A stretch of 64,000 nucleotides of DNA from Candidatus Omnitrophota bacterium (GTDB taxonomy: Bacteria > Omnitrophota > Omnitrophia > Omnitrophales > Aquincolibacteriaceae), in assembly GCA_022711115.1 (NCBI GenBank), contig JAKLFP010000004.1, positions 112,648-176,647 on the forward strand, read 5' to 3'. The notes under the pieces were generated by a model. The model was not told where the DNA came from. It saw nothing but the letters and a program-made list of their open reading frames with translations, and searched no databases. Numbering within the stretch: the first letter of the stretch is position 1; each line of letters begins with the position of its first letter. A program made the translations under genes and the position numbers. Positions 1 to 35,102 of the stretch are shown here, in pieces.

Positions 1-252
1 AAAAAGGTTGTGTTCGTTCAAAATCCTTGCGATATGGGGGGCGTGAACGTTTTCATCGGAGGATGTGGGCAAGTCCTTGATGGAAAGGGTCCCGTACCCA
101 AACAGAATCAATGAGACTGAAAAAAAGATAACAAATTTATAAATTTCCTTATTTACTTTCATCATAACCTTATCTTACTGGTGCGCTGCTTCAGAAGCCT
201 TTGGAATGTTAAAAGCCGGCAGATTTCAAAAGGGGATCTCAGCCGGTTCATC

Positions 253-1470
253 TTAAGGGAAAAAAGATCCATCCCACATTAAGAAAATCAAGCATCCGAT
301 GACAACAATGTTAATGGCGTGTGTCATGAGTATGATCCGTTCGGAATCTTTTTCCTTGAATAATAAGAACAGCGAAAAGGGAATGAAGGAATAACGAATT
401 TCGACAAAGGACAACGGCAACAGGAAAAGAATCGCAAAGGGATAGAAAAGATAAAAGGACGGCCGATGCAGGCGTGTGACGCAAAGCGAAAGAACGGCAT
501 AGGCGATCGGCAAAAAGGTCAAGAATCTGTTAAACAAGGACGCCGTCATCATGAACATGATCCAAGTGCGTATGAAGCGGCCAAACCGGTTGTAAGGGTG
601 ATCCGCGTTGAAAAATAAATAATAAACGAGGAATAATTCAATCAGGATGAGCCACATGATCTTGTTTTGCTTCAGAAACGCGACAATTTTTGGAAAATTC
701 CTTAGATTTAGAGGCAGGAAGAAAAAAAAGAAAAGGAAAAGCGAAAAAAAGATATTGCCGCAAGTCAGAGTTAAGAAATGATGCGCTTTATCGCCGATAA
801 TGAGGCCTTTATTCAAAATAGCGAAGGCAACAAGCAAAATGGCCGCGAGAAAGAAAAAGAAGAATTTTGGCATCCATCGTTTGATATCCCGCCACCGGTA
901 TTGGGGATAATAATTCTGGAAATAAACAAGCAACCCGATGAAAGCAAGCCAAATGATATTGTTTTGTCGGACGAAAAGACTCAGGATGCCGAACATACCG
1001 GAAAGCCAAAGCCGCTTGTTGAGCGCGGCCCAAAGAGCCAGGAAAACATAAAACATAGAATAAATGTCCGTATAGACCAAAAAGAAGAATGGAAAAAATA
1101 ACGGGAAAAAAAGAAAAAGGAGGGATTTCTGTATCGCGGAGTCTCGATCGACTTTATTTGCCAGCATGAAAAAAATGACAAAACAGAGAAAGGAAAGCAG
1201 GGCGGTCAGGGTGCGCATCGAGATAAAATCAGAGACATGACACAACTTCATCAATAGCGCCATCGACCAATGATATCCCGGCAGATAAGGGCAATGGGTC
1301 GGGAATAGATTCGTGCCGCCTAAAATATCGGAAATGATAGGGGCATGGACCGTTTCGTCAGCGCTCATCGCGATGTTTTTCATCAGGAAGAAACCGCTGA
1401 TGAACACAAGCACGACCAATGTTCCCCAAAAGGCGATTGTTTGATTATCTTTTGATGGCTCAAATTTCAT
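253..1470 (-). CDS. ALG10/DIE2-family (GT59-like) GT-C membrane glycosyltransferase, paralog A
   Basis: 405 aa, polytopic. Motifs ADETVH...CPYLPGYHW, FPLFFPFFFLVYTDIYSMFYVFLALW, VRQNNIIWLAF, NKGLIIGDKAHH, HPYNRFGRF and EIRYSFIPF align with the eukaryotic ALG10 motifs I recall (DEIFH..PGLY, FPTLYFFNFLYYTEAGSMFF, FRQTNIIWAVF, NGGIVIGDRSSHE, NRHYTFY, EFRYFILPY). Confidence 0.6.
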   Translation of the reverse strand: MKFEPSKDNQTIAFWGTLVVLVFISGFFLMKNIAMSADETVHAPIISDILGGTNLFPTHCPYLPGYHWSMALLMKLCHVSDFISMRTLTALLSFLCFVIFFMLANKVDRDSAIQKSLLFLFFPLFFPFFFLVYTDIYSMFYVFLALWAALNKRLWLSGMFGILSLFVRQNNIIWLAFIGLLVYFQNYYPQYRWRDIKRWMPKFFFFFLAAILLVAFAILNKGLIIGDKAHHFLTLTCGNIFFSLFLFFFFFLPLNLRNFPKIVAFLKQNKIMWLILIELFLVYYLFFNADHPYNRFGRFIRTWIMFMMTASLFNRFLTFLPIAYAVLSLCVTRLHRPSFYLFYPFAILFLLPLSFVEIRYSFIPFSLFLLFKEKDSERIILMTHAINIVVIGCLIFLMWDGSFFP

Positions 1471-1544
1471 AAGGTTTTTTTTGTTTCAAAAAGCCCCGTT
1501 CGTGATGACAGACCCGTTTTAAGTTAAGCATTTAATTTTTTAAA

Positions 1545-2765
1545 CTACGGAAAAAAAGTTCCATGCAAAATAAGATAAATGACGCAAATATTCGGGACAA
1601 TATAAGTTGCGAGTGTAAAAAGCGTGATATTTTCCGGATCCTTTTGTTTGAAAAGAATAAAAAAAGCCAAGGGAATGAAAAGATACCGGATTTCGATGAC
1701 CGGGAGCGGAAGTAAAAACAAGATCGAGAACGGATACAAAAGGTAATAGGATTTGCGTTGCAACGGGGTGACGCAAAGCGAAAGCACCGAATAAACGATA
1801 GGGATGAATGCCGCGGCCTTAACAAGTATGGACGGTGAAGTCATCCAGAAAATAAACCAGTTATGCAGAAAACGGGCAAATCCGTTGTAGTAATGGGTTG
1901 ATTGGAAAAAGAAAAAATAAATCATGGTGATTTCGATTAAAATAAGCCAGAGCATGATACTGCGTTTTAAATGGGATATGATCTTAAAGAAATTCGAAAG
2001 ATTTAAAGGCAGAAAAAGGAAAAAGAAAATAAAAAGCGCCAGAAATATATTGCCGCCATTGAAAGTTACATAATGATATTTTCGGTCTCCGAGAATAAAA
2101 CCCTTATTCCAGATAACGAACGCGATCATCAAGGCCGCTGCAAGAAAGAAAAAAAAGAACTTGGGCATCCATCGTTTGATGTCTTGCCAACGGTATTGCG
2201 GGTAATAATTCTGGAAGTAAGCAAGCCATCCGATAAAAGCAAGCCAGATAATATTATTTTGGCGGACCATGAGGCTGAGAATGCCGAAGATGCCGGAAAG
2301 CCAAAGACGTTGATTGAGCGCAGCCCCTAGGGCTAGAAAAACATAAAACATGGCGTAAATATCCGTATAGATCACAAAAAAGAACGGAAAGAAAACAGGG
2401 GATAAAAGAAACAATAAGGATTTTTGGATGGAGGAGCGAGCATCGATCTTTTTTGCCAGCATAAAGAAAGCCAGGACGCAAAGAAAAGAAAGGGCTGTGC
2501 TTAAAAAACGGATACTGTCACCATGATCACTGCGGATCAACCAGCTTAAAATGGCCGTTGACCAATGGTAGCCGGGCAAGTAAGGACAGCGGCTGGGGAA
2601 GAAATTTTTACCTTCAAGGATCTCCATGATCTGCATGTGATGGCAGTATTCATCGGCGAGGTGAAGCATGTTTTTTACCGCAAGGTAACCACCGGTAAAA
2701 ACAACGAAAGCAAAAACGAAAAAGGCAACGGTTTTGTAGGTCTCTTTTTTTTCTATGGGCATCAT
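1545..2765 (-). CDS. ALG10/DIE2-family GT-C membrane glycosyltransferase, paralog B (tandem to A)
   Basis: 406 aa, roughly 55-60% identical to paralog A by eye. Same motif set: ADEYCH, CPYLPGYHW, YTDIYAMFYVFLAL, RQNNIIWLAF, NKGFILGDRKYH, EIRYLFIPL. Confidence 0.6.
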   Translation of the reverse strand: MMPIEKKETYKTVAFFVFAFVVFTGGYLAVKNMLHLADEYCHHMQIMEILEGKNFFPSRCPYLPGYHWSTAILSWLIRSDHGDSIRFLSTALSFLCVLAFFMLAKKIDARSSIQKSLLFLLSPVFFPFFFVIYTDIYAMFYVFLALGAALNQRLWLSGIFGILSLMVRQNNIIWLAFIGWLAYFQNYYPQYRWQDIKRWMPKFFFFFLAAALMIAFVIWNKGFILGDRKYHYVTFNGGNIFLALFIFFFLFLPLNLSNFFKIISHLKRSIMLWLILIEITMIYFFFFQSTHYYNGFARFLHNWFIFWMTSPSILVKAAAFIPIVYSVLSLCVTPLQRKSYYLLYPFSILFLLPLPVIEIRYLFIPLAFFILFKQKDPENITLFTLATYIVPNICVIYLILHGTFFP

Positions 2766-3231
2766 TTTTGTTCTATCAGAAGAGACTTTCGGGACGATGG
2801 GTAAGTAATGTTCAAAGTTTTATCAGAAATTCGTGTAAAACAACAAATCCATTATTCAATTTTAGAATCGTATAAAATCTTTTGAAAGATTTTATCCGTC
2901 TTTAGTGAATATGTCCACAAAATCACAGTTCGAATGAATAGGATTTCGGAAAAGGGCGTTTCAATTTTAAAACCTTTGTGACATAATAAACTTCGTAAAA
3001 TTTGATTCCACCCGGCGGAAAAATGAACGTCATTGTAAAACGTCATTGTAAAATCATGAGGTCTTTTGCTGAAACGGGAATTTGAATGCGTCCAGCTAAA
3101 GATCGAGAGGTCGAAGGCGCATAAGTCGATCTCGTTAGTGCGCGATTCTCATCGATCATGGAATGGGGAGCTCCGAAAAATATGAATCTTACCTTAAAGC
3201 CTTGTCCGCGACTGTCTCCACGATACAGGCA

Positions 3232-3663
3232 ATGAATCGATTTTATTGGAAAAAAATAATTTTCAGGACTTTTCTCGGGGTCATTCTTAATGTTGTTTTT
3301 ATCTTGATAGACCATAACAGCGCTTTCCCTGCCGAAGATGTCTCCGGACTCATCGCTCAAGGTGAAACGTTTCTGGCTCAAGGAGATTTTAAGCAAACTT
3401 GGGCGGTGGCGAAAAAAATTCTGACTGAGGACCCCCAAAATTTAACCGGTTATCGTCTTGCCTTGATTTATTTCATCAACATCGGAAACGAAACAGGTTT
3501 TTATAAAATGATCAGAGAAGCAAAAAAACATGGCGTTTCAGATCTGGCGATCGATGAAATTGCCTTGCAGCTCTTATTTTTGGCGGATCAACAGCAGCAA
3601 GCCTATTACAGATTATATGAGTATGAAATGAAGTGGCGTGAAACTTATGATCCCGCTTATTAA
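3232..3663 (+). CDS. small membrane-anchored TPR-like protein
   Basis: In-frame ATG at 3232 followed by a hydrophobic anchor (FRTFLGVILNVVFILI) and a TPR-like helical region. Overlaps the start of the downstream membrane protein gene. Confidence 0.35.
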   Translation: MNRFYWKKIIFRTFLGVILNVVFILIDHNSAFPAEDVSGLIAQGETFLAQGDFKQTWAVAKKILTEDPQNLTGYRLALIYFINIGNETGFYKMIREAKKHGVSDLAIDEIALQLLFLADQQQQAYYRLYEYEMKWRETYDPAY

Positions 3664-5395
3664 AAGATCTTTTTTTCGTACGCCGCTTGCCGTTTACACC
3701 CTGGCTGTGACTTTTATTTTTGTCTTGGGTTTTTTTATTCATTATGGGCGGGAAGCCCGTCATTCAAAATCTTGGCAGTATGTGATGTCGGACGACCAAC
3801 TGGTCTACTGGAGTATTGCCAAGGGCAGAATGATGTCGCCCCGCTGTGATGGAAATCCTTATTATTACGAAGAGCAGGGCACTCGGAATATCATCCCTTT
3901 TACTACGGCTGAAGTCATAGGGCTCGTCTCTAAATATACAAAAATCCCTCTCGAGTGGTTTTTCCCATTATGGCAAATTCTCATGCCGCTTTTTGTTTGG
4001 TTTGTTATTGCCGTTTGTTGCTGGAAATTATGGAACTATCCTCTCAGTGTCAGTGCCGCAGCAGCCTTGCTCCTTCTTCTGGGCACCCTATTCTGTCCCT
4101 GGCCGGGTATCCACACGACCTTGTTCAGGTTTTCAAGACCTCTGGATGGAATCGCGCCCATTTTTTTGTGGATCTCTCTGATCTATAAGGGAGATCCGGG
4201 CAATAAAAAACATCATATCGCGATCATCATGACAGCGGCCTTAACGTTATGGTTACAACCTTTTTATGCTGTTTTCTGTTTATGGATCACGGTTTTTGAA
4301 TACATGAGTTCCATCGCCCAAAGGGGAGGTTTTTTAAAACATCGGCTTTATTTCCATGCCTTGGGAAGCAGTCTTGTTTCCGGACTTATTTTTGCGGACT
4401 ATGCCTTTCATGGTAAAAATATCACGGCCGCGTATTTGCCCACAAGGGATGCCCCGGGAGGTGCGCCCCTTTTTTGCCTTCTCATGACGCTCCTCATGTT
4501 GATCGTCGTTGTATCCGTTGTGATTTTCTTTTATGTTTGCTTGAAAAAGGAAGTCTCGCCGCTCGATCGTTTGATGACCGCATGGACTTTTTTTGGAGTT
4601 CTGATTTACGCAACGTTAAAACCGCTATCGGAATTAACCATCCATATGCTGTACTTTGCGCCTGTCATGATATTGTCTTCAGCTGGGTGGATTCATGAAA
4701 AAATTTCTATATTAAAAGGAACGCGCTATTTTTCTTTTTTTAGCCGTGCGGTTGTTATTCTTTCGGTTTTTTTTCTTGCGGCGGCATTGATTTCCAAGAA
4801 AAACTTTTTCAGTCTAGAGAGTCGCCACTATTTTGTTTATATCCCACAATATTTTTTCATCATGCTCTTTTCTTTTTGGCTTTCCGCAAGGTTCCATCTT
4901 ATAAAAACGTGGGTGATGCAGAAAAAAACTGTTTGCGGCATCATACTTCTGCTTGCCGTGGCGGGATTTTGGAAAATGCCCCTGTCTCTTTGGAATCGTG
5001 ATTTTTCCTTTGGCGGGGGATACCAGTGGCTTAAAGCACATGCGCAGCAAAACGATGTCGTTCTGACGGCGTCATTTAAATGCATGTACAGCGAATATCT
5101 GTTTTATAAAACAGGATTGAAGTCCTATTTTACCGATCATGGACAAGCATCTGAATTTCGAAGAACCCCGAAGGCTTTTCGGATCAATTTTGTCAATGGG
5201 TTGTTATTGGGTTTGTTGGATCACATGCCCCATTATGGCAGTTTACCGCTTGCCCAAAAGCTCCGCTTTTTCAAGCTGGACTATGTGTTAATTCCCAAAC
5301 CAAGTCCTTTTCTTGAGGAGGTCACGACCCAGCTGAAGGGGCATCTACAGGAAGTTTATCAGGATCAGAAATGTCTGCTGTGGAAAGTTATCTGA
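3638..5395 (+). CDS. large polytopic membrane protein with a C-terminal soluble domain, possibly GT-C-like, family unassigned
   Basis: 585 aa: about 400 aa with many TM helices, then about 150 aa hydrophilic C-terminus. SDDQ in the first loop. The true start may be the ATG at 3647. Confidence 0.55.
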   Translation: MKLMIPLIKRSFFRTPLAVYTLAVTFIFVLGFFIHYGREARHSKSWQYVMSDDQLVYWSIAKGRMMSPRCDGNPYYYEEQGTRNIIPFTTAEVIGLVSKYTKIPLEWFFPLWQILMPLFVWFVIAVCCWKLWNYPLSVSAAAALLLLLGTLFCPWPGIHTTLFRFSRPLDGIAPIFLWISLIYKGDPGNKKHHIAIIMTAALTLWLQPFYAVFCLWITVFEYMSSIAQRGGFLKHRLYFHALGSSLVSGLIFADYAFHGKNITAAYLPTRDAPGGAPLFCLLMTLLMLIVVVSVVIFFYVCLKKEVSPLDRLMTAWTFFGVLIYATLKPLSELTIHMLYFAPVMILSSAGWIHEKISILKGTRYFSFFSRAVVILSVFFLAAALISKKNFFSLESRHYFVYIPQYFFIMLFSFWLSARFHLIKTWVMQKKTVCGIILLLAVAGFWKMPLSLWNRDFSFGGGYQWLKAHAQQNDVVLTASFKCMYSEYLFYKTGLKSYFTDHGQASEFRRTPKAFRINFVNGLLLGLLDHMPHYGSLPLAQKLRFFKLDYVLIPKPSPFLEEVTTQLKGHLQEVYQDQKCLLWKVI

Positions 5396-5517
5396 GGGGA
5401 GGATTTCCTGCAGGAAGCTTTTTGATAAGGCGTTTTTAATTTAACAAGGATCCGGATTATTTTATGCGGCATGACTTTTAGATATGATTAGTAGTGTAAA
5501 AATCTTTTTATCACAGA

Positions 5518-6645
5518 GTGTCAACCAAGGTTTTGCTCTTTATGGGAAATAAAAAGATACTTTTCCTCTCGTTTTCACGTAGTCCATGGATTTTGTTTTT
5601 CAAATATCTTGTTTTTTCCATCCTCCCGTTTGTGCTTTTGTTATTTGTCAGCGAAGTGGTCCTGCGGGTTTTAAATTTTAGATATTCCGATACACCTCTG
5701 GTCATCCAGTCCCAGCCTGAAACGACCTCGGTTCTGAATTTTTCCCGGTATTTCAAAGAAAATCCGGACAGTACTTTTGTAAAAGACAAACTCCTTTTTT
5801 GGACCCAGAGGCCTTATTGGGAAGATCAGTATGTTTTGGAGAAGCCTCGCGGGATCACGCGCATCATGACTCTCGGATGTTCCTGCACGCATGGGTGTGA
5901 CAATATGAAAAATTCTTATCCCAATTACATGGATGAAATTCTTGAAATACAATTCCCTGACAGTTATCAGGTCATTAACGCCGGCGCCAGCGGCTATTCT
6001 TCCTATCAGGGATTGCAGGTGCTCAGGCATGTGATCCTGAAGTATCAACCCGAGATCGTGACTATTTTTTTTGGATGGAATGACCATTGGTTTGCAAGCA
6101 AGCCCGATCATTTGGTGCGCGTGAAAGAGGATTGGGAGGTCAGTCTGATTAATTTTCTGGAAAAATGCAGAACTTATCAGGCTTACCACTGGATGATCGC
6201 TCAATTGAAAGAAAAAGTTTTTAAAACGACGAAAACAGGTCCCTCGCGTACCTTTCGTGTGCCGCAGGAGAAATATAAAGCTAACTTGAACGCCATGGTG
6301 GATTTTTGTCAAAGCCATAATATCAAGCCGGTATTGATGACAGCACCGTTTGATGCATCGCAGTTGGCAGGGCACGGGCCAACCTTTTTCTGTTTTAATT
6401 CTTATGAAGATCTGGTGAAAACCCATATGGCTTATAACCATATTGTGCGGGAAGTAGGCGCGTCTCGGCAGGTTCCGGTGATCGATCTCGAAAGGGTGTT
6501 TTTTCAACTAGAAAAGAAACAATCGGCGCCCTATTTTACGGACGGCATTCATTTATCCTCCGTGGGTTGCCCGCTCGCGGCAAGTTTCATCGTTGAAAAA
6601 CTGAGGGAATTTGCTCTTCTCAAAGATCCTCCCGTCAAAAATTAA
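5518..6645 (+). CDS. membrane-anchored SGNH/GDSL-family hydrolase
   Basis: N-terminal TM segment. SGNH blocks: I (RIMTLGCSCTHG), III (GWNDHW), V (DGIHLS). Confidence 0.7.
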   Translation: MSTKVLLFMGNKKILFLSFSRSPWILFFKYLVFSILPFVLLLFVSEVVLRVLNFRYSDTPLVIQSQPETTSVLNFSRYFKENPDSTFVKDKLLFWTQRPYWEDQYVLEKPRGITRIMTLGCSCTHGCDNMKNSYPNYMDEILEIQFPDSYQVINAGASGYSSYQGLQVLRHVILKYQPEIVTIFFGWNDHWFASKPDHLVRVKEDWEVSLINFLEKCRTYQAYHWMIAQLKEKVFKTTKTGPSRTFRVPQEKYKANLNAMVDFCQSHNIKPVLMTAPFDASQLAGHGPTFFCFNSYEDLVKTHMAYNHIVREVGASRQVPVIDLERVFFQLEKKQSAPYFTDGIHLSSVGCPLAASFIVEKLREFALLKDPPVKN

Positions 6646-6647
6646 AG

Positions 6648-6671
6648 GCCCTGTAATTTTTCTTTCAGGGC
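6648..6671. terminator. weak hairpin between convergent genes
   Basis: GCCCTG-12 nt-CAGGGC directly after the SGNH stop. No clean T-run follows. Confidence 0.25.
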
Positions 6672-6759
6672 TACTTGATTCCGGGTCTATCCACCATTTT
6701 TGTCACTGCATCGCGCTCTTTTTCTGACAGAAAGAATACTGGATTTCTCCGGTTGATCT

Positions 6760-8055
6760 TTAAGGGAAAAAACGGAGTGCCATCGGGGTTGACAAAGCTG
6801 CGATCAAACAACCCGTCAGTGTGAGGTTGGTAGCCAGGGTCGCAAGCGTTATTTCTTCGGAAGGAGGTTCCATAAAGAGGATGAAAAAAGCGATGGGAAT
6901 AAAAAGATAGCGGGGTTCGATGACGACGATCGGGGACAGAAACAAAAACGTAAACGGATAAAGGAGATAAAAAGATCTTCGTTCTAAGCGTGTGACGCAA
7001 AGGGAAAGGAGACTATAACCTATCGGTAAAAAGGTGAGCATTTTGCTCCAGAGGGCAGGGTTCCTCATCCACTCGAGGAGCCAGTTGTGGAGAAAACGCT
7101 GGAACCAGCTTTGCACAGTGTTGTAAAGGTGATTGGCTTTAAAACAAAAAAGATATAATAAAAAAGTCACGATCAAAATGGGAATGATCCATCGGTTCCG
7201 TTTCAAGAGCGCGAGGATTTTGGGGGCGTTAAAAAGATTTTGAGGAAGAAAAAGAAAAAAGAAAAGAAAAAGCAATAAAAAAAAGTTATCGAGTGAAAAA
7301 CCTAGCGGGTGATGAGCTTTGTCGCCGAGGATGAATCCTTTATTCCAGATCACAAAGACTGCGACTAAAAACAGGGCGAAAAAGAAGAAGAAAAATTTTG
7401 AGATCCATTGCCTGACGTCTTTCCACTTGTACTGCGGGTAGTAATCTTCAATATAGACAAGTGCGACGATAAATCCAAGCCAAAAGATATTATTTTGTCG
7501 GATCATGAGGCTGAGAATGCCGAAGAAACCGGAAAGCCACAGGCGCCGTTTGATCGCGAATAAAAGAGCCAGGAAAAGATACATCAGGGAATAGATGTCT
7601 GTATAAATCAAAAAGAAATAGGGAACAAAAAGCGGCGAGAAAAGAAAAAAAGTGGCTTTTGCCGCGGTGGAATTTCTATCCAGGGTTTTTACGAGAAAAA
7701 AATAGACGACAAAACTAGCAAATGAAAGGATCGTGGATAAAAGCCGTAGCATGGTCGGAAAGAAGTATAGAGCCACGGGCGAAGCAAGCGGTAAAAGCTC
7801 AGTCGATCCCGGTCCCCTGAAATGAGTCAGCCAATATAAAAGAGCCACGGTCCAGTGATAGCCCGGTAAATAGGGGCAGAGTTTTGGGAAACGATCAGTG
7901 CCATCCAGAATTCCGAGGATCATCCGACTGTGGCAGGGCTCGTCGGCAATAGCTGGTAGGAGTTTGAAAAATAAAAAAAAGCAGGACATAAAAATAACCA
8001 GTGCTGAAAAAAGGAAAAGAAAATCCGGGGAAAGGCCTTTAGCTTTTGGTAACAT
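6760..8055 (-). CDS. ALG10/DIE2-family GT-C membrane glycosyltransferase, paralog C (more divergent)
   Basis: 431 aa. Motifs ADEPCH, CPYLPGYHW, YTDIYSLMYLFLAL, RQNNIFWLGF, NKGFILGDKAHH, EPRYLFIPIAFF. Confidence 0.6.
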   Translation of the reverse strand: MLPKAKGLSPDFLFLFSALVIFMSCFFLFFKLLPAIADEPCHSRMILGILDGTDRFPKLCPYLPGYHWTVALLYWLTHFRGPGSTELLPLASPVALYFFPTMLRLLSTILSFASFVVYFFLVKTLDRNSTAAKATFFLFSPLFVPYFFLIYTDIYSLMYLFLALLFAIKRRLWLSGFFGILSLMIRQNNIFWLGFIVALVYIEDYYPQYKWKDVRQWISKFFFFFFALFLVAVFVIWNKGFILGDKAHHPLGFSLDNFFLLLFLFFFLFLPQNLFNAPKILALLKRNRWIIPILIVTFLLYLFCFKANHLYNTVQSWFQRFLHNWLLEWMRNPALWSKMLTFLPIGYSLLSLCVTRLERRSFYLLYPFTFLFLSPIVVIEPRYLFIPIAFFILFMEPPSEEITLATLATNLTLTGCLIAALSTPMALRFFP

Positions 8056-8353
8056 GATTTCTCATAAGGCGTTTCAAAATCACCAATATCATCTGGATTG
8101 TCATTGCTTCAAAAAATAGGCACCTAAAATTTAAAAAAGTATAAAACCTCCCGTGATGTTCCACAAGCAGAATTTGATTTAAAGGGGCGTTGCGATGGGA
8201 GGGTAAAGAAAAGGTCGGCGGCTTTGGAAACAGCCGGAATCGGAGGTTCCTATTTTCAGATCTCTGTGACATAATGGTTTTCAGAAATTTTATTTCATGC
8301 CGTTCAAACGTTACTTTTAGAAACCCTTCAACATCTGTTTACAGGAGGTTCCA

Positions 8354-9397
8354 ATGTATCCGACGAAAGCTTACGCAGCCGAAAGCGCTGTAAAACCTTT
8401 AGGCCCTTTCGAGTTCAACCGGCGTGCGGTGGGGCCAAACGATATCCTGATAGACATTCATTTCTGCGGCATCTGCCATTCGGATATTCACCAGGTCCGT
8501 GACGAATGGGGGCATTCCTTGTACCCGATGGTCCCGGGACATGAAATCGTGGGCATCATAGCTCAAGTAGGGGCTCAAGTGAAAAAATTCAAACCTGGCG
8601 ATAGAGTCGGAGTCGGGTGTCTCGTAGAATCCTGTCGGGAGTGTCCGGAATGCAAAGAAGGATATGAACAATATTGTCCTCAGCCGGTTTTCACCTATAA
8701 TTGCAAGGAAAAAGACGGTAAAACTCTGACCCAAGGAGGGTATTCAACCCGGATCGTTGTCAACGAGGATTTTGTTCTTCGCCTGCCTGAAAATCTTCCC
8801 ATGAATGCCACAGCACCGCTTCTTTGTGCCGGTATCACGACTTATTCCCCCCTTCGCCACTGGAAAGCGGGTCCTGGGAAAAAGGTGGGTGTGATCGGTC
8901 TGGGTGGTCTCGGACATATGGCGGTCAAGATCGCAAAGGCCATGGGAGCGGAGGTATCTGTGCTCAGTCGATCACGTAAAAAGGAGACCGACGCCAAACG
9001 TCTCGGTGCGGATCACTACTGTGCGACGGCGGAAGCAGGAACCTTCGAGAAACTGGCGAAGACTTTTGACCTTATCATCTGCACGGTTTCGGTGGATGTT
9101 GATTGGAATCAGTATCTCAATACTCTCAAACGCGACGGAACGATGGTGGTGGTCGGTGTGCCCCCCAAGTCTCCGACCGTGAATGCTGCCAATCTTATCT
9201 TTGGCCGCCACAGTTTGGCGGGGTCACTGATCGGCGGGATCCGGGAAACGCAGGAGATGCTGGATTTTTGCGGCAAGCACAATATCGTTTCTGATATCGA
9301 AATGATTCCTATCCAGAAAGTCAATGAAGCCTATGAGCGCGTGATCAAGGGGGATGTGAAATTCCGTTTCGTGATTGACATCGCATCCTTGAAATAA
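8354..9397 (+). CDS. zinc-dependent alcohol dehydrogenase, cinnamyl-alcohol/NADP-dependent family
   Basis: GICHSDIH...PGHEIVG catalytic Zn motif. Structural-Zn CxxC cluster (CRECPEC). GLGGLGHMAVK Rossmann motif. Confidence 0.9.
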   Translation: MYPTKAYAAESAVKPLGPFEFNRRAVGPNDILIDIHFCGICHSDIHQVRDEWGHSLYPMVPGHEIVGIIAQVGAQVKKFKPGDRVGVGCLVESCRECPECKEGYEQYCPQPVFTYNCKEKDGKTLTQGGYSTRIVVNEDFVLRLPENLPMNATAPLLCAGITTYSPLRHWKAGPGKKVGVIGLGGLGHMAVKIAKAMGAEVSVLSRSRKKETDAKRLGADHYCATAEAGTFEKLAKTFDLIICTVSVDVDWNQYLNTLKRDGTMVVVGVPPKSPTVNAANLIFGRHSLAGSLIGGIRETQEMLDFCGKHNIVSDIEMIPIQKVNEAYERVIKGDVKFRFVIDIASLK

Positions 9398-9829
9398 GTT
9401 ACCGGACACTGTCGAGGATAACATTCACTATCGATTGAAAACAGACCTTAGAGGAAAGCCGAGAAATCAAATTGAGGCAACTCCTTGAGAGGGCTTTTTT
9501 TCAGCGTAGTTAATTTTATTCTATGGATGACATTTGAATCGAATGAATCTTCTTGAGATGTATCCCATCAAGCCGAAGATCAAAACAATACTAATATGTT
9601 TATTTTAATAAAGCTAAGCGCTTGAATAGAACAAAAAATTATAAATTGCTATAAATTATAATTTTAAAAAGTAAATGGGATAGGTTATAGTTTTAACATA
9701 AGGAAACAAAAGAAATAAAGCCATTTAAAACAGATGCGTAGAAAGGGATTCATTTTAAATTTTGGCACGAGGGTTAATTACGAGAATGATATGAAAACAA
9801 TGGGCGTTGGAAAGGAGTCTTTGATTTTT

Positions 9830-10279
9830 ATGAAAAAATGGAGAAACCACAAAAAAGGTTTTACGCTTGTCGAAATTCTCATCGTAATAGTCATTTTAGC
9901 TGTTCTAGCGTCCATGATCCTTCCTAGATTAACAGCTCAGCCGGAAACTGGATATATTGCGGAAGCCCAAAATGTATTGGGTTTCGTACGCTCGGCTTTA
10001 GTCATGAATATAGACTCCGCAGGCGGGACGTGGCCGACTTTAAGCAATGCGGATTTCCAGAATGCGGCGACCATGTTATCGCATAACTTACGGCCTGTTG
10101 TCAGTACGAACTGGAGTTTTAGCTGTGGTCAAACGAGCGGCGGGTTTTGTATGGCAACACGATTGGGCACAGGCAGTCATGCCGGCGCTTCGATCATTTT
10201 GAATCAAACAGGTAGTTTTAGCTGTGCTGGAACTAATCCCTACACGCTCATTGACGCTGCCAAGGGTTGCAAGTCGTAG
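9830..10279 (+). CDS. type IV pilin / pseudopilin-like protein (N-terminal methylation motif)
   Basis: MKKWRNHKKGFTLVEILIVIVILAVLASMILP is a prepilin leader plus conserved hydrophobic helix. RBS AAAGGAG lies 12 nt upstream. The tracked ORF begins earlier at 9734. Confidence 0.75.
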   Translation: MKKWRNHKKGFTLVEILIVIVILAVLASMILPRLTAQPETGYIAEAQNVLGFVRSALVMNIDSAGGTWPTLSNADFQNAATMLSHNLRPVVSTNWSFSCGQTSGGFCMATRLGTGSHAGASIILNQTGSFSCAGTNPYTLIDAAKGCKS

Positions 10280-12281: not shown

Positions 12282-13076
12282 ATGAAGTTCTCAAAAAACA
12301 TTATGGTGGCCCTCGCTTTTTTTGTGATCGTCGGTATTTCACTGGCTCCAGCAGTCTTTGCGGCGTGCTGTGACGGTAAAACCAAAAGTTCTCCGCTTCG
12401 CATCGAAAAAAATATGCCTCCTCAGATCGTTATCGGAAAACCCTATGCTTACACGATCCGTGTTACCAACCAGTCCGAGTGTCTGATGAATGATGTTTCT
12501 GTGGTGGAAACATTGCCTGCGACGTATGATCTGAGCACGGCATCGCCGGAAGCCTCCAGCGTGTCGGGAAGGGTCGCTCAATGGGATTTTGGTTCTTTGA
12601 AAGCCGGTGAATCCAAAACGATCAACATCAACGGCAGCGCGAAGTCCGTCGGCTCGTTTGTGTCGTGCACCAAGGTATTCCACAGCCAGACCCTTTGTTT
12701 CGGTCCCGAATTGGCCATGCCGGCGATCCTGCTTGAGGTGGTTGATACGGAAGATCCCGTTCAGGTCGGCGGGATGGAAAAATTCTACGTGACTGTGACC
12801 AACCAGGGGAATGCTGAAGATACAAACATTGTCGTGAAGCTGGACTTTGAGGCGAACTTCGATTATGCGTCATCCGCGGGGCCGACCCGGGCAAAGAGCG
12901 AATCGGCAAAATCCGTGGAATTTTCGCCGTTGCCGACGCTTGGCGCCGGTCAAAAAGCCACTTGGGGGATTGTGGTCAAAGCCCTTTCCGAGGGAGATCA
13001 CCGTACGGCGGTCAAAGTGACCAGCGATGCGATCCAGCGTTCGGTGGATGAAACCGAAGCGACACGAGTTTATTGA
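12282..13076 (+). CDS. secreted protein with two DUF11/CARDB-like repeats
   Basis: Signal peptide. Repeats ...YAYTIRVTNQSECLMNDVSVVETLP... and ...FYVTVTNQGNAEDTNIVVKLDF... Confidence 0.55.
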   Translation: MKFSKNIMVALAFFVIVGISLAPAVFAACCDGKTKSSPLRIEKNMPPQIVIGKPYAYTIRVTNQSECLMNDVSVVETLPATYDLSTASPEASSVSGRVAQWDFGSLKAGESKTININGSAKSVGSFVSCTKVFHSQTLCFGPELAMPAILLEVVDTEDPVQVGGMEKFYVTVTNQGNAEDTNIVVKLDFEANFDYASSAGPTRAKSESAKSVEFSPLPTLGAGQKATWGIVVKALSEGDHRTAVKVTSDAIQRSVDETEATRVY

Positions 13077-17333: not shown

Positions 17334-18654
17334 CTGGCACACTGTTTACACTTTATACCGGACACATAGGTTACACTTTTTTGTCTTATTTTAAAGTGCT
17401 TTTTCTAAAATGAGCCCAAACGGATCTTCTTTGGGAGCGAATTTTCCGCTGGCTTCATCGAAAAATCCAAGGTCATACTCCTTAAAAGAAACCTCCCAGA
17501 TCCCATCCTCCACTAACCGAATTCCCACGGGTTGATTCGCCAAAGCGCAGCTGATATGAATCTTTAGATTCTTTATACAGATTCTGCCACAATGGGTCAC
17601 AAGCATTGTTTTGTCGTGGCCAGGGTAGGTGATATCGGGAAGCCCTCGATAAGGGGTTTGAGATTTTTGATATAAATCGCCCGGGCATTTCATTCCAAGG
17701 GCTTGGTGCGGCCTTTCGAAATTGTACTCCTTCATAAACCGATAAAACTTTTCTTGTTGCTGCAGAAAGCCGAATGCCGGAGGCTGTGTTGCTTCCAGCT
17801 TGAGCGTTCGGTGCATTCTCTCATGCCGACCGTTTTGTTGGGGGCATCCTGGCTCGATCCTCTCGAGTTGAATCCCTAACCGGATCCACCAAACCGAAAG
17901 TTTTGTTAATCCCCAGGCCGAATTCCCGGATGCGAACGGGATCCCATGATCGCTTCGAATGGCCCCGGGAAGGCCATATTCCTTGAAGGTCTCCTCAAAT
18001 ACCCTATAAGCGGTCGTTTCTCGGGTGCTTGTAAGGGCTTCACAGTTAATTAAAAATCGGGTCGCAAAATCAGAAATCGTCAGCGGGTAGCAATAAACCT
18101 TCTTCCCTAATTTAAACTCACCTTTAAAATCAACACACCACAGGTCATTAGCCCCTTTCGGATTGGAAAGATATGTTGCCGTCGCTCGGTAGGGGGATCT
18201 TTGCCTCCGTTTCTTGACAAGATCATGCCGGTCTAATATTTCATGAACTGTGCTAACAGCGGGTAGTTTGATTTCGGGGTGGCGTTTGGAAACTAATTCG
18301 CGGATTTTAGGAGCGCCCCAGTTTGGTTTTTCCCTTTTAAAGCGAACGATCAATTGCTCGATCTCGAAGGGAAGCTGATTGGGATGCTTATGTGGAGCTC
18401 TCGATCGATCAAAAAGGGCCACCGAACCAAACTCATGGTAACGTTTCCAGAGTTTGTATCCGGTGACCCTTGACATTCCAAATTCCCGGCACAATGGCGC
18501 CATCTTTTCGCCTGACAAAAGACGGCCGATAAATTTCGTTCGTTCATCCATCACACATGTCTCCTTCCATGGCATATGCGCCCCCTTTGTTAGGTTCGAT
18601 ATGCCTGAAAGTGTAAACTATGTGCTCAGAATGAACTGTAAACCATGTGCCCGG
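17334..18654 (-). mobile_element. IS481-family-like insertion sequence (~1.3 kb) with compound terminal inverted repeats
   Basis: Left end 17334-17376 (CTGGCACACTGTTTACAC..CCGGACACATAGGTTACAC). Its reverse complement matches the right end 18611-18654 (GTGTAAACTATGTGCTCAG..TGTAAACCATGTGCCCGG). Encloses a DDE transposase gene. Confidence 0.7.
17391..18575 (-). CDS. DDE transposase (HTH + rve integrase core), IS481-like
   Basis: N-terminal HTH (FGMSRVTGYKLWKRY). DDE triad candidates WCVDFKGEF, IRSDHGIPF, NGRHERMHRTLK. Confidence 0.8.
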   Translation of the reverse strand: MPWKETCVMDERTKFIGRLLSGEKMAPLCREFGMSRVTGYKLWKRYHEFGSVALFDRSRAPHKHPNQLPFEIEQLIVRFKREKPNWGAPKIRELVSKRHPEIKLPAVSTVHEILDRHDLVKKRRQRSPYRATATYLSNPKGANDLWCVDFKGEFKLGKKVYCYPLTISDFATRFLINCEALTSTRETTAYRVFEETFKEYGLPGAIRSDHGIPFASGNSAWGLTKLSVWWIRLGIQLERIEPGCPQQNGRHERMHRTLKLEATQPPAFGFLQQQEKFYRFMKEYNFERPHQALGMKCPGDLYQKSQTPYRGLPDITYPGHDKTMLVTHCGRICIKNLKIHISCALANQPVGIRLVEDGIWEVSFKEYDLGFFDEASGKFAPKEDPFGLILEKAL

Positions 18655-25645: not shown

Positions 25646-27619
25646 TTATAAACGGTTTTGAGAAAGTTCCGCGTTATTTATTTTACTCCACTCTTGAGAT
25701 AATCGTTTGGCCCTGTCCCATTCCTGCATTTGTTCCAGTTTCTCAAGTTGTTTTTGAGCGGCGGTGACGTTACCTGTTTGGGCATAAGCTTCACCGAGGT
25801 CATAAATCATTTCCGCATTATGAGGATCCAGCGAGCAAGCCTTCTGAAGAAGGTTGATGGCTTTTTCGAATTCTTTGCGGCCTCGAGCTATTAACCCGAG
25901 ATTATAGTAAGCAGGAGATAAAAAAGGGTTGATCTTTATGGCTGCTTCAAGATTTGTGACGGCCTCAGCGATATTTCTCTTTCGGATATTAAAGATTCCT
26001 AAATTGACATAAGCAATGTAATAAGTCGGGAACTTCTGTATAGCTTTCTGGAGTATTTCAATCGCAAGATCCTGTTGGCCCATCGCGTCGTAGAGAAGTC
26101 CTAAATTGTTGTACGAGTCATAAAATTCGGGATCCGATTCGATGGCTTTTTGATAGAGAGGCAAGGCTTTTTCGAAATTTCCGCTTTGATGAAACAAGGT
26201 AGCAAGATTGAAATAGCTAATGGCAAAGTGAGGATCTTTTTCCAGGGCCTTCTCGTAAGACTCTTTGGCTCTTATGGGGTCATGCAAGCTGTGATAGAAG
26301 TAATTCCCCAAATTGTTGTAAGGTCTTGCTTTATTCGGCGATTTTTTAATGACATCTTCCCACAGCAACTGTTCCGACCCCCAAATATGATTGCGGGTGT
26401 AGGCCATGCACGAAAAGATCATAACGACCAGAGAACCCGCCACCATAAAGTAAGACGCCTTCTCTAAAAAAGAAAATAGGCCGATCCCTAGCAGTAATGC
26501 GCATCCGACAAGGGGAAGATACATGCGGTGTTCGAAAATGACGTCCTCAAGCGGGATGACGGATGATTCAACGCTCAAGGTTAGAAAGAACCAGAAGATC
26601 GAAAATGTGATAAAACGGTTTTTTTTGATCGTCCCAAGGGCTGCTGCCAATAACGTCCCCAGCAAAAATAAGCAAGCCAAAGTTTTTGGCTCCCACAAAG
26701 AATGTGCTGTCGGGTAGTCATAATCAAAATTCTGATTCACCGGCAGGAGGAAGAGACGCAGATAGGTGCATAAAACGTTAAGTTCCGTTAAAAAGTAATC
26801 GCCGCGTGGGAGTGCCTTTATGCGGATGGGAAGAAAGTTTTTGGAGTGAATGTTGTAGCTGGCGGCTTCTGAATGAACAAAATAGGGGATAATGGCCATA
26901 GTGGCTAAAAAGGGGATCAGGCGAAGAAGATTCTTTTTGGAAAAATCAAAAAACAGAAACTCAACCAACAAAAGAGCCAAAGGCAATGTAAAAGCAGTTT
27001 CTTTGCAAAACATGGCCGCAAGATTCATTCCAAAGGCCATTCCGTAATGGATCTTGTTTTGAGTCAGTCTTGCTTTGAGGTAAAAAATAATGGTTCCCAA
27101 ATAGAAAAAAGCAGTTAGGGAGGTCATGCGCTGAACAATGTAGGTTACCGATTGGGTTTGGAGCGGGTGCGACAGGAAAATTAAGGAACTGAAGGCTGCC
27201 AGAAAATATCCCGCTTTTTCAGGGTATTTTCCTTTCATTTTAGGGGTTATCAGGAGAAGCGAGATGAGAAAGTAAACCCAAATGGAGTTCAGTAGATGCA
27301 CCGCCAGATTGAAAAGGTGGTAGCCCCACACCTGATCCTTGCCCAGAGCATGATTGATTGCAAAGGACACAAAAGGAAGAAATCGGATTTTGTTATTCGA
27401 AGACCAGATCGCAGGAATGTCCCATGTCTTATAAAGGGAGATATTTTGTTTGATGTTCATACTGTCATCAAACAGGAAGGGAACATGCCAGGTATTGGAA
27501 TAAATCAGGAGCCCGAGAATGAAAATGGCAAAGCATAATAATGGAAACTTATTTTTAAAAATAAATTCCGGTATTTTTTTTTCATTTCGTGATGCGGAAG
27601 TCATTCGTTTTGTCATCAT
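25646..27619 (-). CDS. TMTC-like polytopic membrane protein (GT-C/PMT_2-like N-domain + C-terminal TPR array)
   Basis: About 400 aa with roughly 10 TM helices and an FDD motif after TM1, then at least 7 TPR repeats. This architecture matches eukaryotic TMTC O-mannosyltransferases and bacterial DUF1736-TPR proteins. Confidence 0.65.
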   Translation of the reverse strand: MMTKRMTSASRNEKKIPEFIFKNKFPLLCFAIFILGLLIYSNTWHVPFLFDDSMNIKQNISLYKTWDIPAIWSSNNKIRFLPFVSFAINHALGKDQVWGYHLFNLAVHLLNSIWVYFLISLLLITPKMKGKYPEKAGYFLAAFSSLIFLSHPLQTQSVTYIVQRMTSLTAFFYLGTIIFYLKARLTQNKIHYGMAFGMNLAAMFCKETAFTLPLALLLVEFLFFDFSKKNLLRLIPFLATMAIIPYFVHSEAASYNIHSKNFLPIRIKALPRGDYFLTELNVLCTYLRLFLLPVNQNFDYDYPTAHSLWEPKTLACLFLLGTLLAAALGTIKKNRFITFSIFWFFLTLSVESSVIPLEDVIFEHRMYLPLVGCALLLGIGLFSFLEKASYFMVAGSLVVMIFSCMAYTRNHIWGSEQLLWEDVIKKSPNKARPYNNLGNYFYHSLHDPIRAKESYEKALEKDPHFAISYFNLATLFHQSGNFEKALPLYQKAIESDPEFYDSYNNLGLLYDAMGQQDLAIEILQKAIQKFPTYYIAYVNLGIFNIRKRNIAEAVTNLEAAIKINPFLSPAYYNLGLIARGRKEFEKAINLLQKACSLDPHNAEMIYDLGEAYAQTGNVTAAQKQLEKLEQMQEWDRAKRLSQEWSKINNAELSQNRL

Positions 27620-30986: not shown

Positions 30987-32269
30987 GCGCGAAACGCCGG
31001 GTGGTTATCGCGGGATTGGGCGCTATTACGGCCTGTGGCAAAGGGTGGGAGCCTTATTGGAATGCCGCGATTCAAGGTCGCTCTGCCATTGTCAGTGCCA
31101 AACCGCTCAACCTCGGCAACTTTCCGTTTAAAAATGCCGGCATGATTCCTGATTTTGACGCGAAGGAATTCGTTGAGAATCGAAAATCGATCAAGGTGAT
31201 GTCGCGAGAAATTCAGCTGGCTGTGGGGGCCAGCCGTCTGGCTCTTCGGGATGCGAAACTTTCTCCGGAGAATTACGATCCGACGCGCATTGGAGTGACT
31301 CTCGGAACCGGGATCATCAATAATGATCTCGATGAGATCGGTATCGGTTTTCGGAATAGTTTGGATGAATCCGGGCATTTTTCCATGAATAAATTCGGAC
31401 AGGAAGGTATCCGGTCGCTTTTCCCTCTTTGGTTTTTGAAATATCTTCCGAACATGCCTGCTTGTCATGTTTCGATGGTGAACCAGCTTCGCGGTCCGAA
31501 CAACACCGTGACAACTTCTTCTGCGGCAAGCACCCAAGCGATCGGAGAAGCCTATCATGTGATTGAACGAGGTGATGCGGATGTGATGCTCGCGGGAGGG
31601 ACGGATTCTAAGCTCAATGCCATGGGCATTTCCCGGTTGCACCTTCTCGGATTTTTGTCTCAGCATGAAGATGCCCCCGAGAAAGTTTATTGCCCCTTTG
31701 ATGAAAAGCATGATGGGATTGTACTCGGAGAAGGTGCGGGCATTATGGTGCTGGAGTCTTTGGAAAGTGCGAAAAGGCGCGGGGCGAATATTTATGCCGA
31801 AATCATTGGCTATGGTTCTTCTTCGGATTTTAATTATGACCCGCGCGATGCGGATGATTTTACGGGCAAGCGTGTAGCCATCCGGCGAGCCCTTGAAGAT
31901 GCCGGACTTGAGCCCGAGGACGTGAATGTGATCGTTGCAAACGGAAGCGGGATCCCCCAGGAGGATGTCCAGGAATCGCTTGCGATCCAATCTTTTTACG
32001 GACAAACTTTCGGAAAGCTTCAAGTCACCGCAGTGAAACCTGTGACAGGGCATCTGGTCTATGGGTCAGGGAGTGTGGAGGCAATGGTCGCTGCCTTAAC
32101 CACCAAGAAAAAACTGATCCCTCCGGTCATCAATCTTGTAAAGCCGGATTCGAATTGCCCATTGCCTTTTGTTATCGGGAAGACAAAATCCTGTGAAGTG
32201 AAGGTAGCGGTTATCAATACATTCGGTTTTGGCGGGCAAAATGCATCCTTGGTGTTTCAACATGTCTAA
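30983..32269 (+). CDS. ketosynthase-like chain-length-factor partner (KS-beta, non-canonical active site)
   Basis: Thiolase fold. At the FabF ATACTSG position it has TTSSAAS (Cys to Ser). HGTGT is replaced by ANGSG. Second His retained (GHLVYGSGSVE). Confidence 0.75.
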   Translation: MSAKRRVVIAGLGAITACGKGWEPYWNAAIQGRSAIVSAKPLNLGNFPFKNAGMIPDFDAKEFVENRKSIKVMSREIQLAVGASRLALRDAKLSPENYDPTRIGVTLGTGIINNDLDEIGIGFRNSLDESGHFSMNKFGQEGIRSLFPLWFLKYLPNMPACHVSMVNQLRGPNNTVTTSSAASTQAIGEAYHVIERGDADVMLAGGTDSKLNAMGISRLHLLGFLSQHEDAPEKVYCPFDEKHDGIVLGEGAGIMVLESLESAKRRGANIYAEIIGYGSSSDFNYDPRDADDFTGKRVAIRRALEDAGLEPEDVNVIVANGSGIPQEDVQESLAIQSFYGQTFGKLQVTAVKPVTGHLVYGSGSVEAMVAALTTKKKLIPPVINLVKPDSNCPLPFVIGKTKSCEVKVAVINTFGFGGQNASLVFQHV

Positions 32270-34644: not shown

Positions 34645-34673
34645 TTTTTTGGCCCATAACGGAGGTAGGTGCG

Positions 34674-35033: not shown

Positions 35034-35056
35034 GATAAGACAGTTTAATTTTATGA

Positions 35057-35099: not shown

Positions 35100-35102
35100 G
35101 AT

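Follow-up and report, generated by a model that had tools for sequence, protein, structure and literature searches.

ALG10/DIE2 is the Dol-P-Glc:Glc2Man9GlcNAc2-PP-Dol alpha-1,2-glucosyltransferase. Enzymes of this type are expected to use a lipid-phosphate-monosaccharide donor (PMC10920833), and their topology, in which the motifs are placed in non-cytoplasmic loops, comprises about 13 TM helices (PMC6801728). The ER-lumen ALG glycosyltransferases, ALG10 among them, have been described as eukaryote-only, with no prokaryotic homologues by BLAST (Lombard 2016, PMC4973528). In GT-C assembly lines, such as ALG3/9/12 and ALG6/8/10 of the ER lumen or mycobacterial EmbA-C and AftA-D, paralogous GT-C enzymes build or extend one glycan stepwise from lipid-phosphate sugars (PMC13503287). 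A three-component logic of periplasmic glycosylation is described for Gtr-like systems (GtrA/GtrB/GtrC, GT136 pentofuranose, ArnC/ArnT), in which a GT2 enzyme loads undecaprenyl phosphate, a flippase exports the product and a GT-C enzyme transfers the sugar outside the cytoplasm (PMC11127046). Our literature searches on prokaryotic ALG10/PF04922 and on Omnitrophota glycosylation gave nothing relevant. Here we describe an array of ALG10-family genes in a Candidatus Omnitrophota MAG, part of which lies in the window, i.e. the whole analysed stretch of 64,000 nucleotides, and we compare it with these systems.

Array organisation and family membership

An earlier sequence-only reading of this DNA had proposed five ORFs, and all of them are present (405, 406, 431, 585 and 375 aa) with the positions and strands given in Table 1. 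The three ALG10-like paralogs among them are real, and the motifs quoted for them are invariant among the three, but this was an undercount, as the genome has six copies and the window cuts the array. It holds three whole paralogs and a fraction of a fourth, whose translation (MMKVNKEIYKF...SSDENVHAP) is identical to the start of the 405-aa PF04922 gene L003:7317-8534; two more paralogs of the same genome lie beyond it, outside the window. The six copies are intact ORFs of 49-67% mutual identity and are ancient duplications. Paralogs 2 and 3 share 59-60% identity, with every conserved residue present in paralog 2, while paralog 1 is the most divergent copy, with 49-51% identity (52% to paralog 3 in one comparison) and a first outer loop lengthened by an 18-residue insertion. 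Outer-face motifs common to the six copies are DE after TM1, YTD, RQNN, N.G...GD..H and E.RY, and the 16 family-conserved positions, the DE pair among them, are kept in each copy.

Table 1. Features of the array region, in window coordinates
Feature	Position	Strand	Description
Paralog 4, N-terminal 55 codons	1-165	-	ALG10-family, cut by window edge; DE..H motif
Paralog 3	253-1470	-	405 aa, ALG10-family (PF04922/GT59-like) GT-C, 13 TM helices; Pfam 87 bits
Paralog 2	1545-2765	-	406 aa, ALG10-family GT-C; Pfam 79.6 bits
Divergent intergenic region	2766-3162	.	Between minus-strand paralogs and plus-strand 166-aa/585-aa/SGNH genes; from gene layout
166-aa single-TM protein	3163-3663	+	Helical, possibly TPR-like extracytoplasmic domain; stop overlaps start of 585-aa gene
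585-aa orphan membrane protein	3638-5395	+	GT-C by predicted fold; C-terminal extracytoplasmic globular domain
Membrane-anchored SGNH/GDSL hydrolase	5518-6645	+	375 aa; Lipase_GDSL_2 74.5 bits
Paralog 1	6760-8055	-	431 aa, ALG10-family GT-C; Pfam 73.7 bits; conserved residues present

Judging from the gene layout, the divergent intergenic region presumably holds promoters for both directions; a consensus scan (sigma-70) of positions 1-8500 for promoters and terminators gave nothing above shuffled expectation. The array is flanked by housekeeping genes (carbonic anhydrase, PEPCK, MetH, ADH), with no O-antigen or capsule locus. Two kinds of variability were considered and rejected. Strain-level copy-number variation or pseudogenisation had been prompted by discrepant gene calls for L001 and L002, and tblastn found the same five intact tandem copies on each of the four contigs. 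The poly-Phe codons were examined for homopolymer tracts that could drive phase variation, and this idea was dropped as well, the longest run being 8 nt and the FFFFF codons being mixed TTT/TTC.

In terms of sequence family, the three whole array proteins are true DIE2/ALG10 (GT59) members, as the earlier reading had proposed from motifs, because their PF04922 DIE2_ALG10 scores (Table 1) lie far above the gathering cut-off of 27 bits, the match to animal ALG10 spans the full length with the motifs aligned, and the fold is GT-C. The HHalign comparison with animal ALG10 gave 99.9%, E 4.5e-34 and 368 aligned columns, and the motifs DE.FH, YTD/E, RQTN, NGG.V.GD..H and E.RY of ALG10 all line up in it; BLASTP against pika ALG10 reached E 4e-10. 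The proteins have a GT-C fold with approximately 13 TM helices; the conserved acidic motif lies in the first loop outside the cytoplasm, and the motifs as a whole fall on non-cytoplasmic loops, as in eukaryotic ALG10. The GT-C assembly-line enzymes are the top structural matches of this fold, and neither single-sequence nor profile search found a solved ALG10 relative in PDB. Bacterial homologs of only about 405 aa would be useful for structural work on a family without a solved structure.

The bacterial copies differ from the eukaryotic enzyme in several respects. They are only 19-23% identical to it, they are shorter (about 405 versus about 470 aa) and devoid of a charged insertion of around 35 residues in the post-TM6 loop, and they occur as six paralogs in a bacterial inner membrane, whereas eukaryotes have one or two genes acting in the ER. 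Functional orthology should not be assumed. Bacteria are not known to have the acceptor Glc2Man9GlcNAc2-PP-dolichol, which makes the exact ALG10 reaction unlikely there.

To call a bacterial version unusual, as had been done for the triplicated one, is an overstatement: the genomes of at least 78 prokaryotic species carry ALG10-like genes, deeply diverged over many bacterial and archaeal phyla, CPR bacteria included. Prokaryotic homologs score 78-131 bits on PF04922 and several span profile positions 2-391 of 391. Such proteins are already auto-annotated in databases.

The predicted orphan GT-C protein, its partner and the SGNH hydrolase

The 585-aa protein, earlier read as possibly another GT-C, is probably, by its modelled fold, a second GT-C at the array; the model is of modest quality (pLDDT 67.8) and leaves the conserved first outer loop unmodelled. 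The profile check gave no such assignment: in sequence the protein resembles no entry of Pfam, NCBIfam or PDB. The family counts about 60 cluster representatives among 1.84 billion proteins, and no relationship to the ALG10-like family is detectable by HHalign (probability 10%). In combining a modelled GT-C fold with a C-terminal extracytoplasmic domain the protein would resemble AftA, AglB/STT3 and PMT-type enzymes; unlike them, it belongs to a family without sequence similarity to theirs, in which an overlapping gene for a single-TM partner is always present. Here this partner is the 166-aa protein, an ORF absent from the earlier reading, with one TM segment at about residue 30. It is 34-47% identical (E 1e-23 to 1e-38) to small ORFs overlapping the 580-594-aa genes on three other Omnitrophota contigs, and from this conservation it is a partner of the orphan GT-C. 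No Pfam or NCBIfam profile matches it.

The earlier assignment as a membrane-anchored SGNH protein was borne out. The Lipase_GDSL_2 cut-off is 32.9 bits, weak SGNH(AT3-fused) and AlgX matches accompany the main one, and there is a single N-terminal TM segment. By eye, the translation keeps the blocks LGCSCT, AGASG, GWND and DGIH, corresponding to Ser (I), Gly (II), Asn (III) and Asp-x-x-His (V). The enzyme is probably extracytoplasmic. Its gene adjoins the array in this species only, so that its tie to the system is one of position alone.

Donor supply and proposed function

In other genomes, 23 of 78 ALG10-like loci carry an ArnC/GtrB/DPM1-type polyprenyl-phosphate-sugar synthase (GT2), there are two fusions of the two proteins, and related Omnitrophota loci also carry a polyprenyl-phosphate glycosyltransferase. 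Because of these fusions and neighbours, dependence on polyprenyl-phosphate sugars, already proposed from the sequence, is the best reading, and the three-component logic of Gtr-like systems may be extended to the ALG10-like family. The array departs from those systems in that its GT-C belongs to a different, GT59-like sequence family, in that six transferase paralogs take the place of a single serotype-specific one, and in that neither synthase nor flippase is encoded at the array: no polyprenyl-phosphate-sugar synthase was found in the window or roughly 10 kb beyond, and no GtrA, MATE, SMR or other flippase candidate there or in the recurrent neighbour clusters. DAGK_prokar, DUF192, RpiB and the other small genes conserved next to the homologs are a matter of lineage synteny in Peribacteria.

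Two distant window genes had been counted in the same system, and neither appears to belong there. They are separated from the array by some 17 kb, occupied by a transposase and housekeeping genes. The GT2 at 35103-36335 was considered as donor synthase and rejected: it is HpnB/CruG-like, lies among lipid genes and is no polyprenyl-phosphate-sugar synthase. The supposedly TMTC-like protein at 25646-27619 is confirmed only in its C-terminal TPRs; its residues 1-445 gave no Pfam match at E<=0.01, thus no PMT_2, DUF1736 or GT-C profile, and no PDB sequence match, and HHalign links it to neither the ALG10-like nor the 585-aa GT-C family.

On balance, we consider it probable that the array is an extracytoplasmic glycan-decoration cluster using polyprenyl (undecaprenyl)-phosphate sugars on a lipid-linked or LPS-type surface glycan. 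Weighing against this reading are the housekeeping neighbours and the fact that the searches turned up neither a synthase nor a flippase at the array, and no acceptor. An ArnC/GtrB/DPM1-type GT2 encoded outside the window would make the polyprenyl monophosphate sugar at the cytoplasmic face, and each ALG10-like enzyme would move one monosaccharide from it to the acceptor, most likely the surface glycan named above. By analogy with ALG10, an inverting enzyme that uses dolichyl/polyprenyl-phosphate-glucose, the sugar transferred by the bacterial paralogs may be glucose. Acceptor position or linkage would set the paralogs apart, and they would act either in sequence, like ALG6/8/10 or mycobacterial Aft/Emb, or as alternative decorations; in contrast to the assembly lines, sequential action of the six paralogs is here a hypothesis. 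From the orphan GT-C with its 166-aa partner the glycan may receive another sugar, and its O-acyl groups could be removed or transferred by the SGNH enzyme.

Among the alternatives, it is unlikely, though worth weighing, that proteins are glycosylated in place of glycans. As with PMT, TMTC or TfpW, sugars would then pass directly from polyprenyl-phosphate sugars to Ser/Thr residues of type IV pilins, giant adhesins or other secreted or surface proteins, by the action either of the ALG10-like enzymes or of the orphan GT-C and its helical partner. The only characterised family members, the eukaryotic ALG10s, use a lipid-linked oligosaccharide, the pilin and giant ORF are separated from the array by housekeeping genes, the TPR nature of the partner is not confirmed by any profile, and no Ser/Thr-rich acceptor was identified. 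We hold it quite improbable that the cluster modifies lipid A or LPS core with sugars taken from Und-P donors, like ArnT or EptA-type resistance, and so alters surface charge or susceptibility to phage or antimicrobials. No locus examined carries ArnA/B/D-type or Ara4N pathway genes, six paralogs far exceed the need of such a system, and the ALG10 family also occurs in archaea and CPR bacteria, which are not known to have LPS. That some or all paralogs are non-catalytic, either decaying duplicates or scaffold or transport proteins keeping the fold, is hardly credible given the intact ORFs and conserved positions described above; moreover, in the tree individual paralogs have orthologs in other Omnitrophota, a persistence which indicates long-term purifying selection.

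Within the favoured reading, i.e. decoration of a surface glycan from polyprenyl-phosphate sugars, the presence of six copies, together with the orphan GT-C and its partner, suggests that Omnitrophota have an uncharacterised and probably elaborate surface glycan.

Relation to eukaryotic ALG10

Phylogeny had been named as the means of separating vertical inheritance from transfer out of eukaryotes, and nothing in it points to such a transfer. Since the animal ALG10s form one separate long branch apart from the prokaryotic sequences, the tree gives no sign of recent acquisition. A seemingly prokaryotic clade near eukaryotic ALG10, made up of P0094 and some 30 relatives, proteins of roughly 340 aa with 44% identity to vertebrate ALG10, was rejected: they are last exons of animal genes, on gene-poor contigs that also carry a reverse transcriptase. 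A recent horizontal gain of the eukaryotic gene, or contamination by eukaryotic DNA, followed by local amplification, could appeal to the family having been first defined in eukaryotes and to P0094 appearing among the matches to a window protein, and is effectively refuted by the eukaryotic nature of that fragment, by the low identity to animal ALG10 and deep prokaryotic divergence, by scores on an animal ALG10 HMM of 18-88 bits for prokaryotic against 736-856 for animal sequences, and by the source contig itself, which is about 281 kb long, has the dense gene content typical of bacteria and is recovered identically in four independent assemblies.

Across many phyla of bacteria and archaea there is a clear full-length prokaryotic ALG10 branch that shows repeated coupling to DPM1/ALG5-like lipid-sugar synthases, and it offers a concrete start for tracing the origin of the glucosylation arm in eukaryotic N-glycan synthesis. 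A wider proposal is put forward tentatively, as possible rather than probable: prokaryotes, especially ultra-small episymbionts (Omnitrophota, CPR/Peribacteria, DPANN archaea), may own an 'ER-lumen-like' assembly line in which ALG10-family and other GT-C arrays, including the new GT-C family with its single-TM partner, assemble a complex surface glycan step by step, outside the cytoplasm and with polyprenyl-phosphate sugars as donors; the ALG10 step of eukaryotes would descend from the prokaryotic family. If true, this step of N-glycan biosynthesis would be a prokaryotic inheritance and not a eukaryotic invention. Microbulbifer litoralis, Corallococcus praedator and Archangium lansingense are culturable carriers of ALG10-like genes in which function could be tested, and such carriers also occur in Chiayiivirga.

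Composition of the ALG10-like array

The claim that a bacterial locus combines ALG10/GT59-family GT-C glycosyltransferases with another probable GT-C and an SGNH hydrolase holds. All five open reading frames of the sequence-only reading were found where it had placed them. Relative to paralog 3, paralog 2 is 60% and paralog 1 is 52% identical, with the quoted motifs as invariant blocks; the three proteins score 87, 79.6 and 73.7 bits against Pfam PF04922 (DIE2_ALG10; gathering cut-off 27 bits), and none is matched by any NCBIfam model. The observation thus stands, and its ALG10 motifs were correctly identified.

Coordinates of the features discussed (window positions unless a contig is named)
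Feature	Position	Strand	Length
Paralog 4, first 55 residues (translation at window edge)	1-165	-	
Paralog 3, polytopic, ALG10 family	253-1470	-	405 aa
Paralog 2, polytopic, ALG10 family	1545-2765	-	406 aa
Single-TM partner ORF	3163-3663	+	166 aa
585-aa protein	3638-5395	+	585 aa
GDSL/SGNH hydrolase	5518-6645	+	375 aa
Paralog 1, polytopic, ALG10 family	6760-8055	-	431 aa
Type IV pilin-like protein (N_methyl motif)	9734-10279	+	
DUF11 surface-repeat protein	12282-13076	+	
rve/HTH_32 transposase	17391-18575	-	
TPR protein	25646-27619		
Lipid-gene group including the GT2	32229-36335		
GT2, HpnB/CruG-like	35103-36335		
Giant ORF, start (same genome)	L001:18830-21209		8366 aa
Polytopic pair (related Omnitrophota contig)	L086:1703-3643; L086:3682-5607		~640 aa each
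P0061, GT2/ALG10-like fusion (metagenomic)	L006:8001-9986		~660 aa
Thioploca ingrica AP014633.1 gene group	L005:3129-9257		

Profile-profile alignment of 48 prokaryotic homologs with ten animal ALG10 proteins gave 99.9% probability (E 4.5e-34) over 368 columns, which cover residues 31-406 in the former and 30-459 of 472 in the latter. All quoted motifs are paired in it with their animal counterparts: ADE..H with MDEIFH, LPGYHW with LPGLYL, YTD with YTD/E, RQNNIIW with RQTNIVW, NKG.I.GD..HH with NGGIVVGDRSNHE, and EIRY.FIP with EFRYFILP. BLASTP against pika ALG10 returned E 4e-10 and 23% identity across 239 residues.

Three paralogs had been counted, and three are indeed full-length in the window; the genome, however, holds six, the fourth being cut by the window start. 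As same-organism contigs from four independent assemblies show, the array runs on beyond this point with two further copies (PLO78_04760 of a "Candidatus Omnitrophota bacterium" MAG matches paralog 3 exactly). Paralog 1 is followed on the opposite strand by the SGNH, 585-aa and 166-aa genes, and then by five tandem paralogs of 406, 405, 405, 408 and 402 aa, past which lie genes for beta-carbonic anhydrase, PEPCK, a histidine kinase and MetH, and an 8366-aa ORF. The contigs had seemed to differ in the number of copies, which came down to a gap in gene calling: by tblastn, each of the four carries these five tandem copies intact. No homopolymer tract pointing to phase variation was found.

Pairwise identity across the six copies is 49-67%, and 16 family-conserved positions are kept in every one (D38, E39, Y133-T-D135, R168-Q-N-N171, N239, P253, N294, E357, R359, Y360 and P364). 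TM1, outer loops 1 and 4 and TM13 diverge most, while the EL2/TM4-5 core is the most conserved; this pattern is weakly compatible with a common donor and differing acceptors. The model of the ALG10-like protein has 13 predicted hydrophobic helices, with 14 Lys+Arg in loops assigned to the cytoplasm versus 7 in outer loops; all conserved motifs lie on outer loops, the DE pair immediately following TM1. It agrees with the 13-TMD topology proposed for eukaryotic ALG10 (PMC6801728). In CAZy, GT59 is an inverting family with a lipid-phosphate-monosaccharide donor (PMC10920833, Table 1).

Candidate surface proteins are encoded nearby. The giant ORF, which has no Pfam match, starts ~7.6 kb past the end of the array and could be a candidate surface protein and glycosylation acceptor. 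A pilin-like gene lies 1.7 kb from paralog 1, with the DUF11 protein slightly farther; pilins serve as GT-C acceptors in other bacteria.

Genes accompanying the array

The 585-aa protein had been taken as possibly another GT-C. Its predicted fold, in a model of modest quality, favours this assignment; no Pfam or NCBIfam profile matches it. Only 60 relatives emerged when 1.84 billion cluster representatives were searched exhaustively by HMM, and profile comparison detected no kinship with the ALG10-like family. In an alignment of 30 family sequences E78 is invariant, and D53, R164, R167, D170, D310 and H336 are at least 90% conserved. The start of its gene is overlapped by the 166-aa ORF, whose product contains a single TM segment and shares 34-47% identity with small ORFs overlapping homologous large genes on three other Omnitrophota contigs; the two genes form a conserved two-gene module. 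On those contigs the modules are often duplicated, and their neighbours are an ALG10-like gene and one for a GtrB homolog of full length (2.4e-50 to Synechocystis GtrB, two C-terminal TM segments). Sugar epimerases, a split transketolase, methyltransferases, radical-SAM enzymes and a GT9 are encoded there as well; this is a context of surface-glycan biosynthesis. On L086, a related contig, two polytopic proteins (69% identical, 11-13 TM segments, no Pfam match) adjoin a GtrB-like GT2 and orphan GT-C modules, and could represent a further, as yet unclassified family of membrane transferases.

The membrane SGNH hydrolase was confirmed by a Lipase_GDSL_2 match of 74.5 bits, one N-terminal TM segment and intact catalytic blocks. 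Its gene adjoins the array in this species only, and solely from this position we propose it as a putative O-acyl editing enzyme.

Two distant genes, previously counted as parts of the same system, should be left out of it. In the TPR protein the C-terminal TPRs were confirmed and the membrane domain matched nothing in Pfam, PDB and HHalign comparisons; the GT2 resembles HpnB/CruG and has lipid-synthesis genes around it. Both are set apart from the array by genes with no relation to it, among them SecA, Lnt, a release factor and a transposase; the rve/HTH_32 transposase comes after the glycosyltransferase locus and before the SecA/Lnt region. The group of ketoacyl synthase, NAD_binding_4 (fatty acyl reductase-like) protein and GT2 has the look of a locus for lipid glycosylation, of glycolipid or carotenoid/hopanoid type, with no link to the array.

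Prokaryotic distribution and origin

The bacterial occurrence had seemed unusual; with one genome taken per GTDB species, a single-pattern scan detected 78 ALG10-like loci. Their carriers are Omnitrophota, DPANN archaea (Nano-, Woese- and Pacearchaeota), CPR bacteria (Peribacteria, Peregrinibacteria, Gottesmanbacteria, Paceibacterota), Elusimicrobia, Chloroflexi, Planctomycetes, Verrucomicrobia, Vicinamibacterales, Myxococcota (Archangium lansingense, Corallococcus praedator), Gammaproteobacteria (Microbulbifer litoralis, Marinagarivorans, Marinimicrobium, Dokdonella, Chiayiivirga flava, Marinicella sediminis), Thioploca ingrica and Uliginosibacterium. Some members already bear automatic database names such as "alpha-1,2-glucosyltransferase", and our literature search found no paper discussing prokaryotic PF04922 proteins. 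The family is not confined to this genome, but is widespread in prokaryotes and auto-annotated. Alg6/8/10 and Alg3/9/12 were earlier regarded as "unique to eukaryotes", without BLAST-detectable prokaryotic homologues (PMC4973528). The interest of the locus lies in the contrast with this view, in the lack of a solved ALG10 structure, and in the orphan GT-C with its partner.

Horizontal transfer from eukaryotes had been raised as an alternative to vertical inheritance. Neighbour joining places the animal ALG10s on a single long branch separate from all prokaryotic sequences, and an animal ALG10 HMM gives prokaryotic members 18-88 bits versus 736-856 bits for animal sequences. Proteins of ~340 aa, 44% identical to vertebrate ALG10, are in fact last exons, located on eukaryotic contigs that are poor in genes. 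Tree, scores and contig inspection thus lend no support to recent transfer or contamination. The six paralogs share a single Omnitrophota clade, in which orthologs from other contigs of the phylum are interspersed; by this tree, their expansion is therefore old and lineage-specific. The last-exon entries of metagenome catalogues (P0094 and P0110-P0139, loci L090 and L091), whose contigs also carry reverse transcriptase, could be taken for prokaryotic ALG10s.

Donor clues from other genomes

The strongest clue to function comes from gene fusions and neighbourhoods elsewhere in the ALG10-like family. In two metagenomic proteins, P0061 and P0064, an N-terminal GT2 is fused to the ALG10-like domain, its best matches being ArnC (4e-16), GtrB (1.6e-10) and dolichol-phosphate-mannose synthase. 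Directly upstream of the fusion gene lies one for a 776-aa protein that matches PMT_2 weakly. When every ORF up to 6 kb from the 78 loci was clustered, GT2 was the commonest neighbour (23 loci, 16 of them within 2 kb); the representative GT2 matches ArnC (7e-31), DPMS (2e-21) and GtrB (5e-15). Of the 30 members of its cluster, 29 are hit by the PgfS and ArnC models and 20-21 by models for synthases of dolichyl- or polyprenyl-phosphate hexose/HexNAc. PMT/GT39, PMT_2 and GT87/PIG-M-like proteins are other recurrent GT-C neighbours.

Bacterial "three-component" extracytoplasmic glycosylation combines a lipid-sugar synthase with a flippase and a GT-C (PMC11127046). The GT2 fusions and neighbours in other genomes are components of such systems, and their pairing with ALG10-like proteins parallels the logic of eukaryotic ALG5/DPM1 and lumenal ALG enzymes. 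They make use of polyprenyl-phosphate sugars the best-supported reading of how the ALG10-like proteins work. Neither a polyprenyl-phosphate-sugar synthase nor a flippase candidate is encoded in the window or 10 kb beyond; by gene content, the locus is therefore not a self-contained three-component system. To our knowledge no ALG10 acceptor is known in bacteria, so the exact ALG10 reaction should not be assumed.

In Thioploca ingrica, a UbiA-family prenyltransferase, a PMT_2 GT-C, two small ORFs, a GMC/DAO flavoprotein and the ALG10-like gene follow one another in this order. Because this order resembles polyprenyl-phospho-pentofuranose (DPA/Ribf-type) donor pathways, it suggests that the donor sugar differs among family members. 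In six Peribacteria loci (L031, L035, L039, L063, L069, L071) a gap of ~20 nt separates the ALG10-like gene from one for a kinase of the DAGK_prokar family, which includes undecaprenol kinases. This kinase may provide the carrier lipid, or the closeness of the two genes may be simply lineage synteny.
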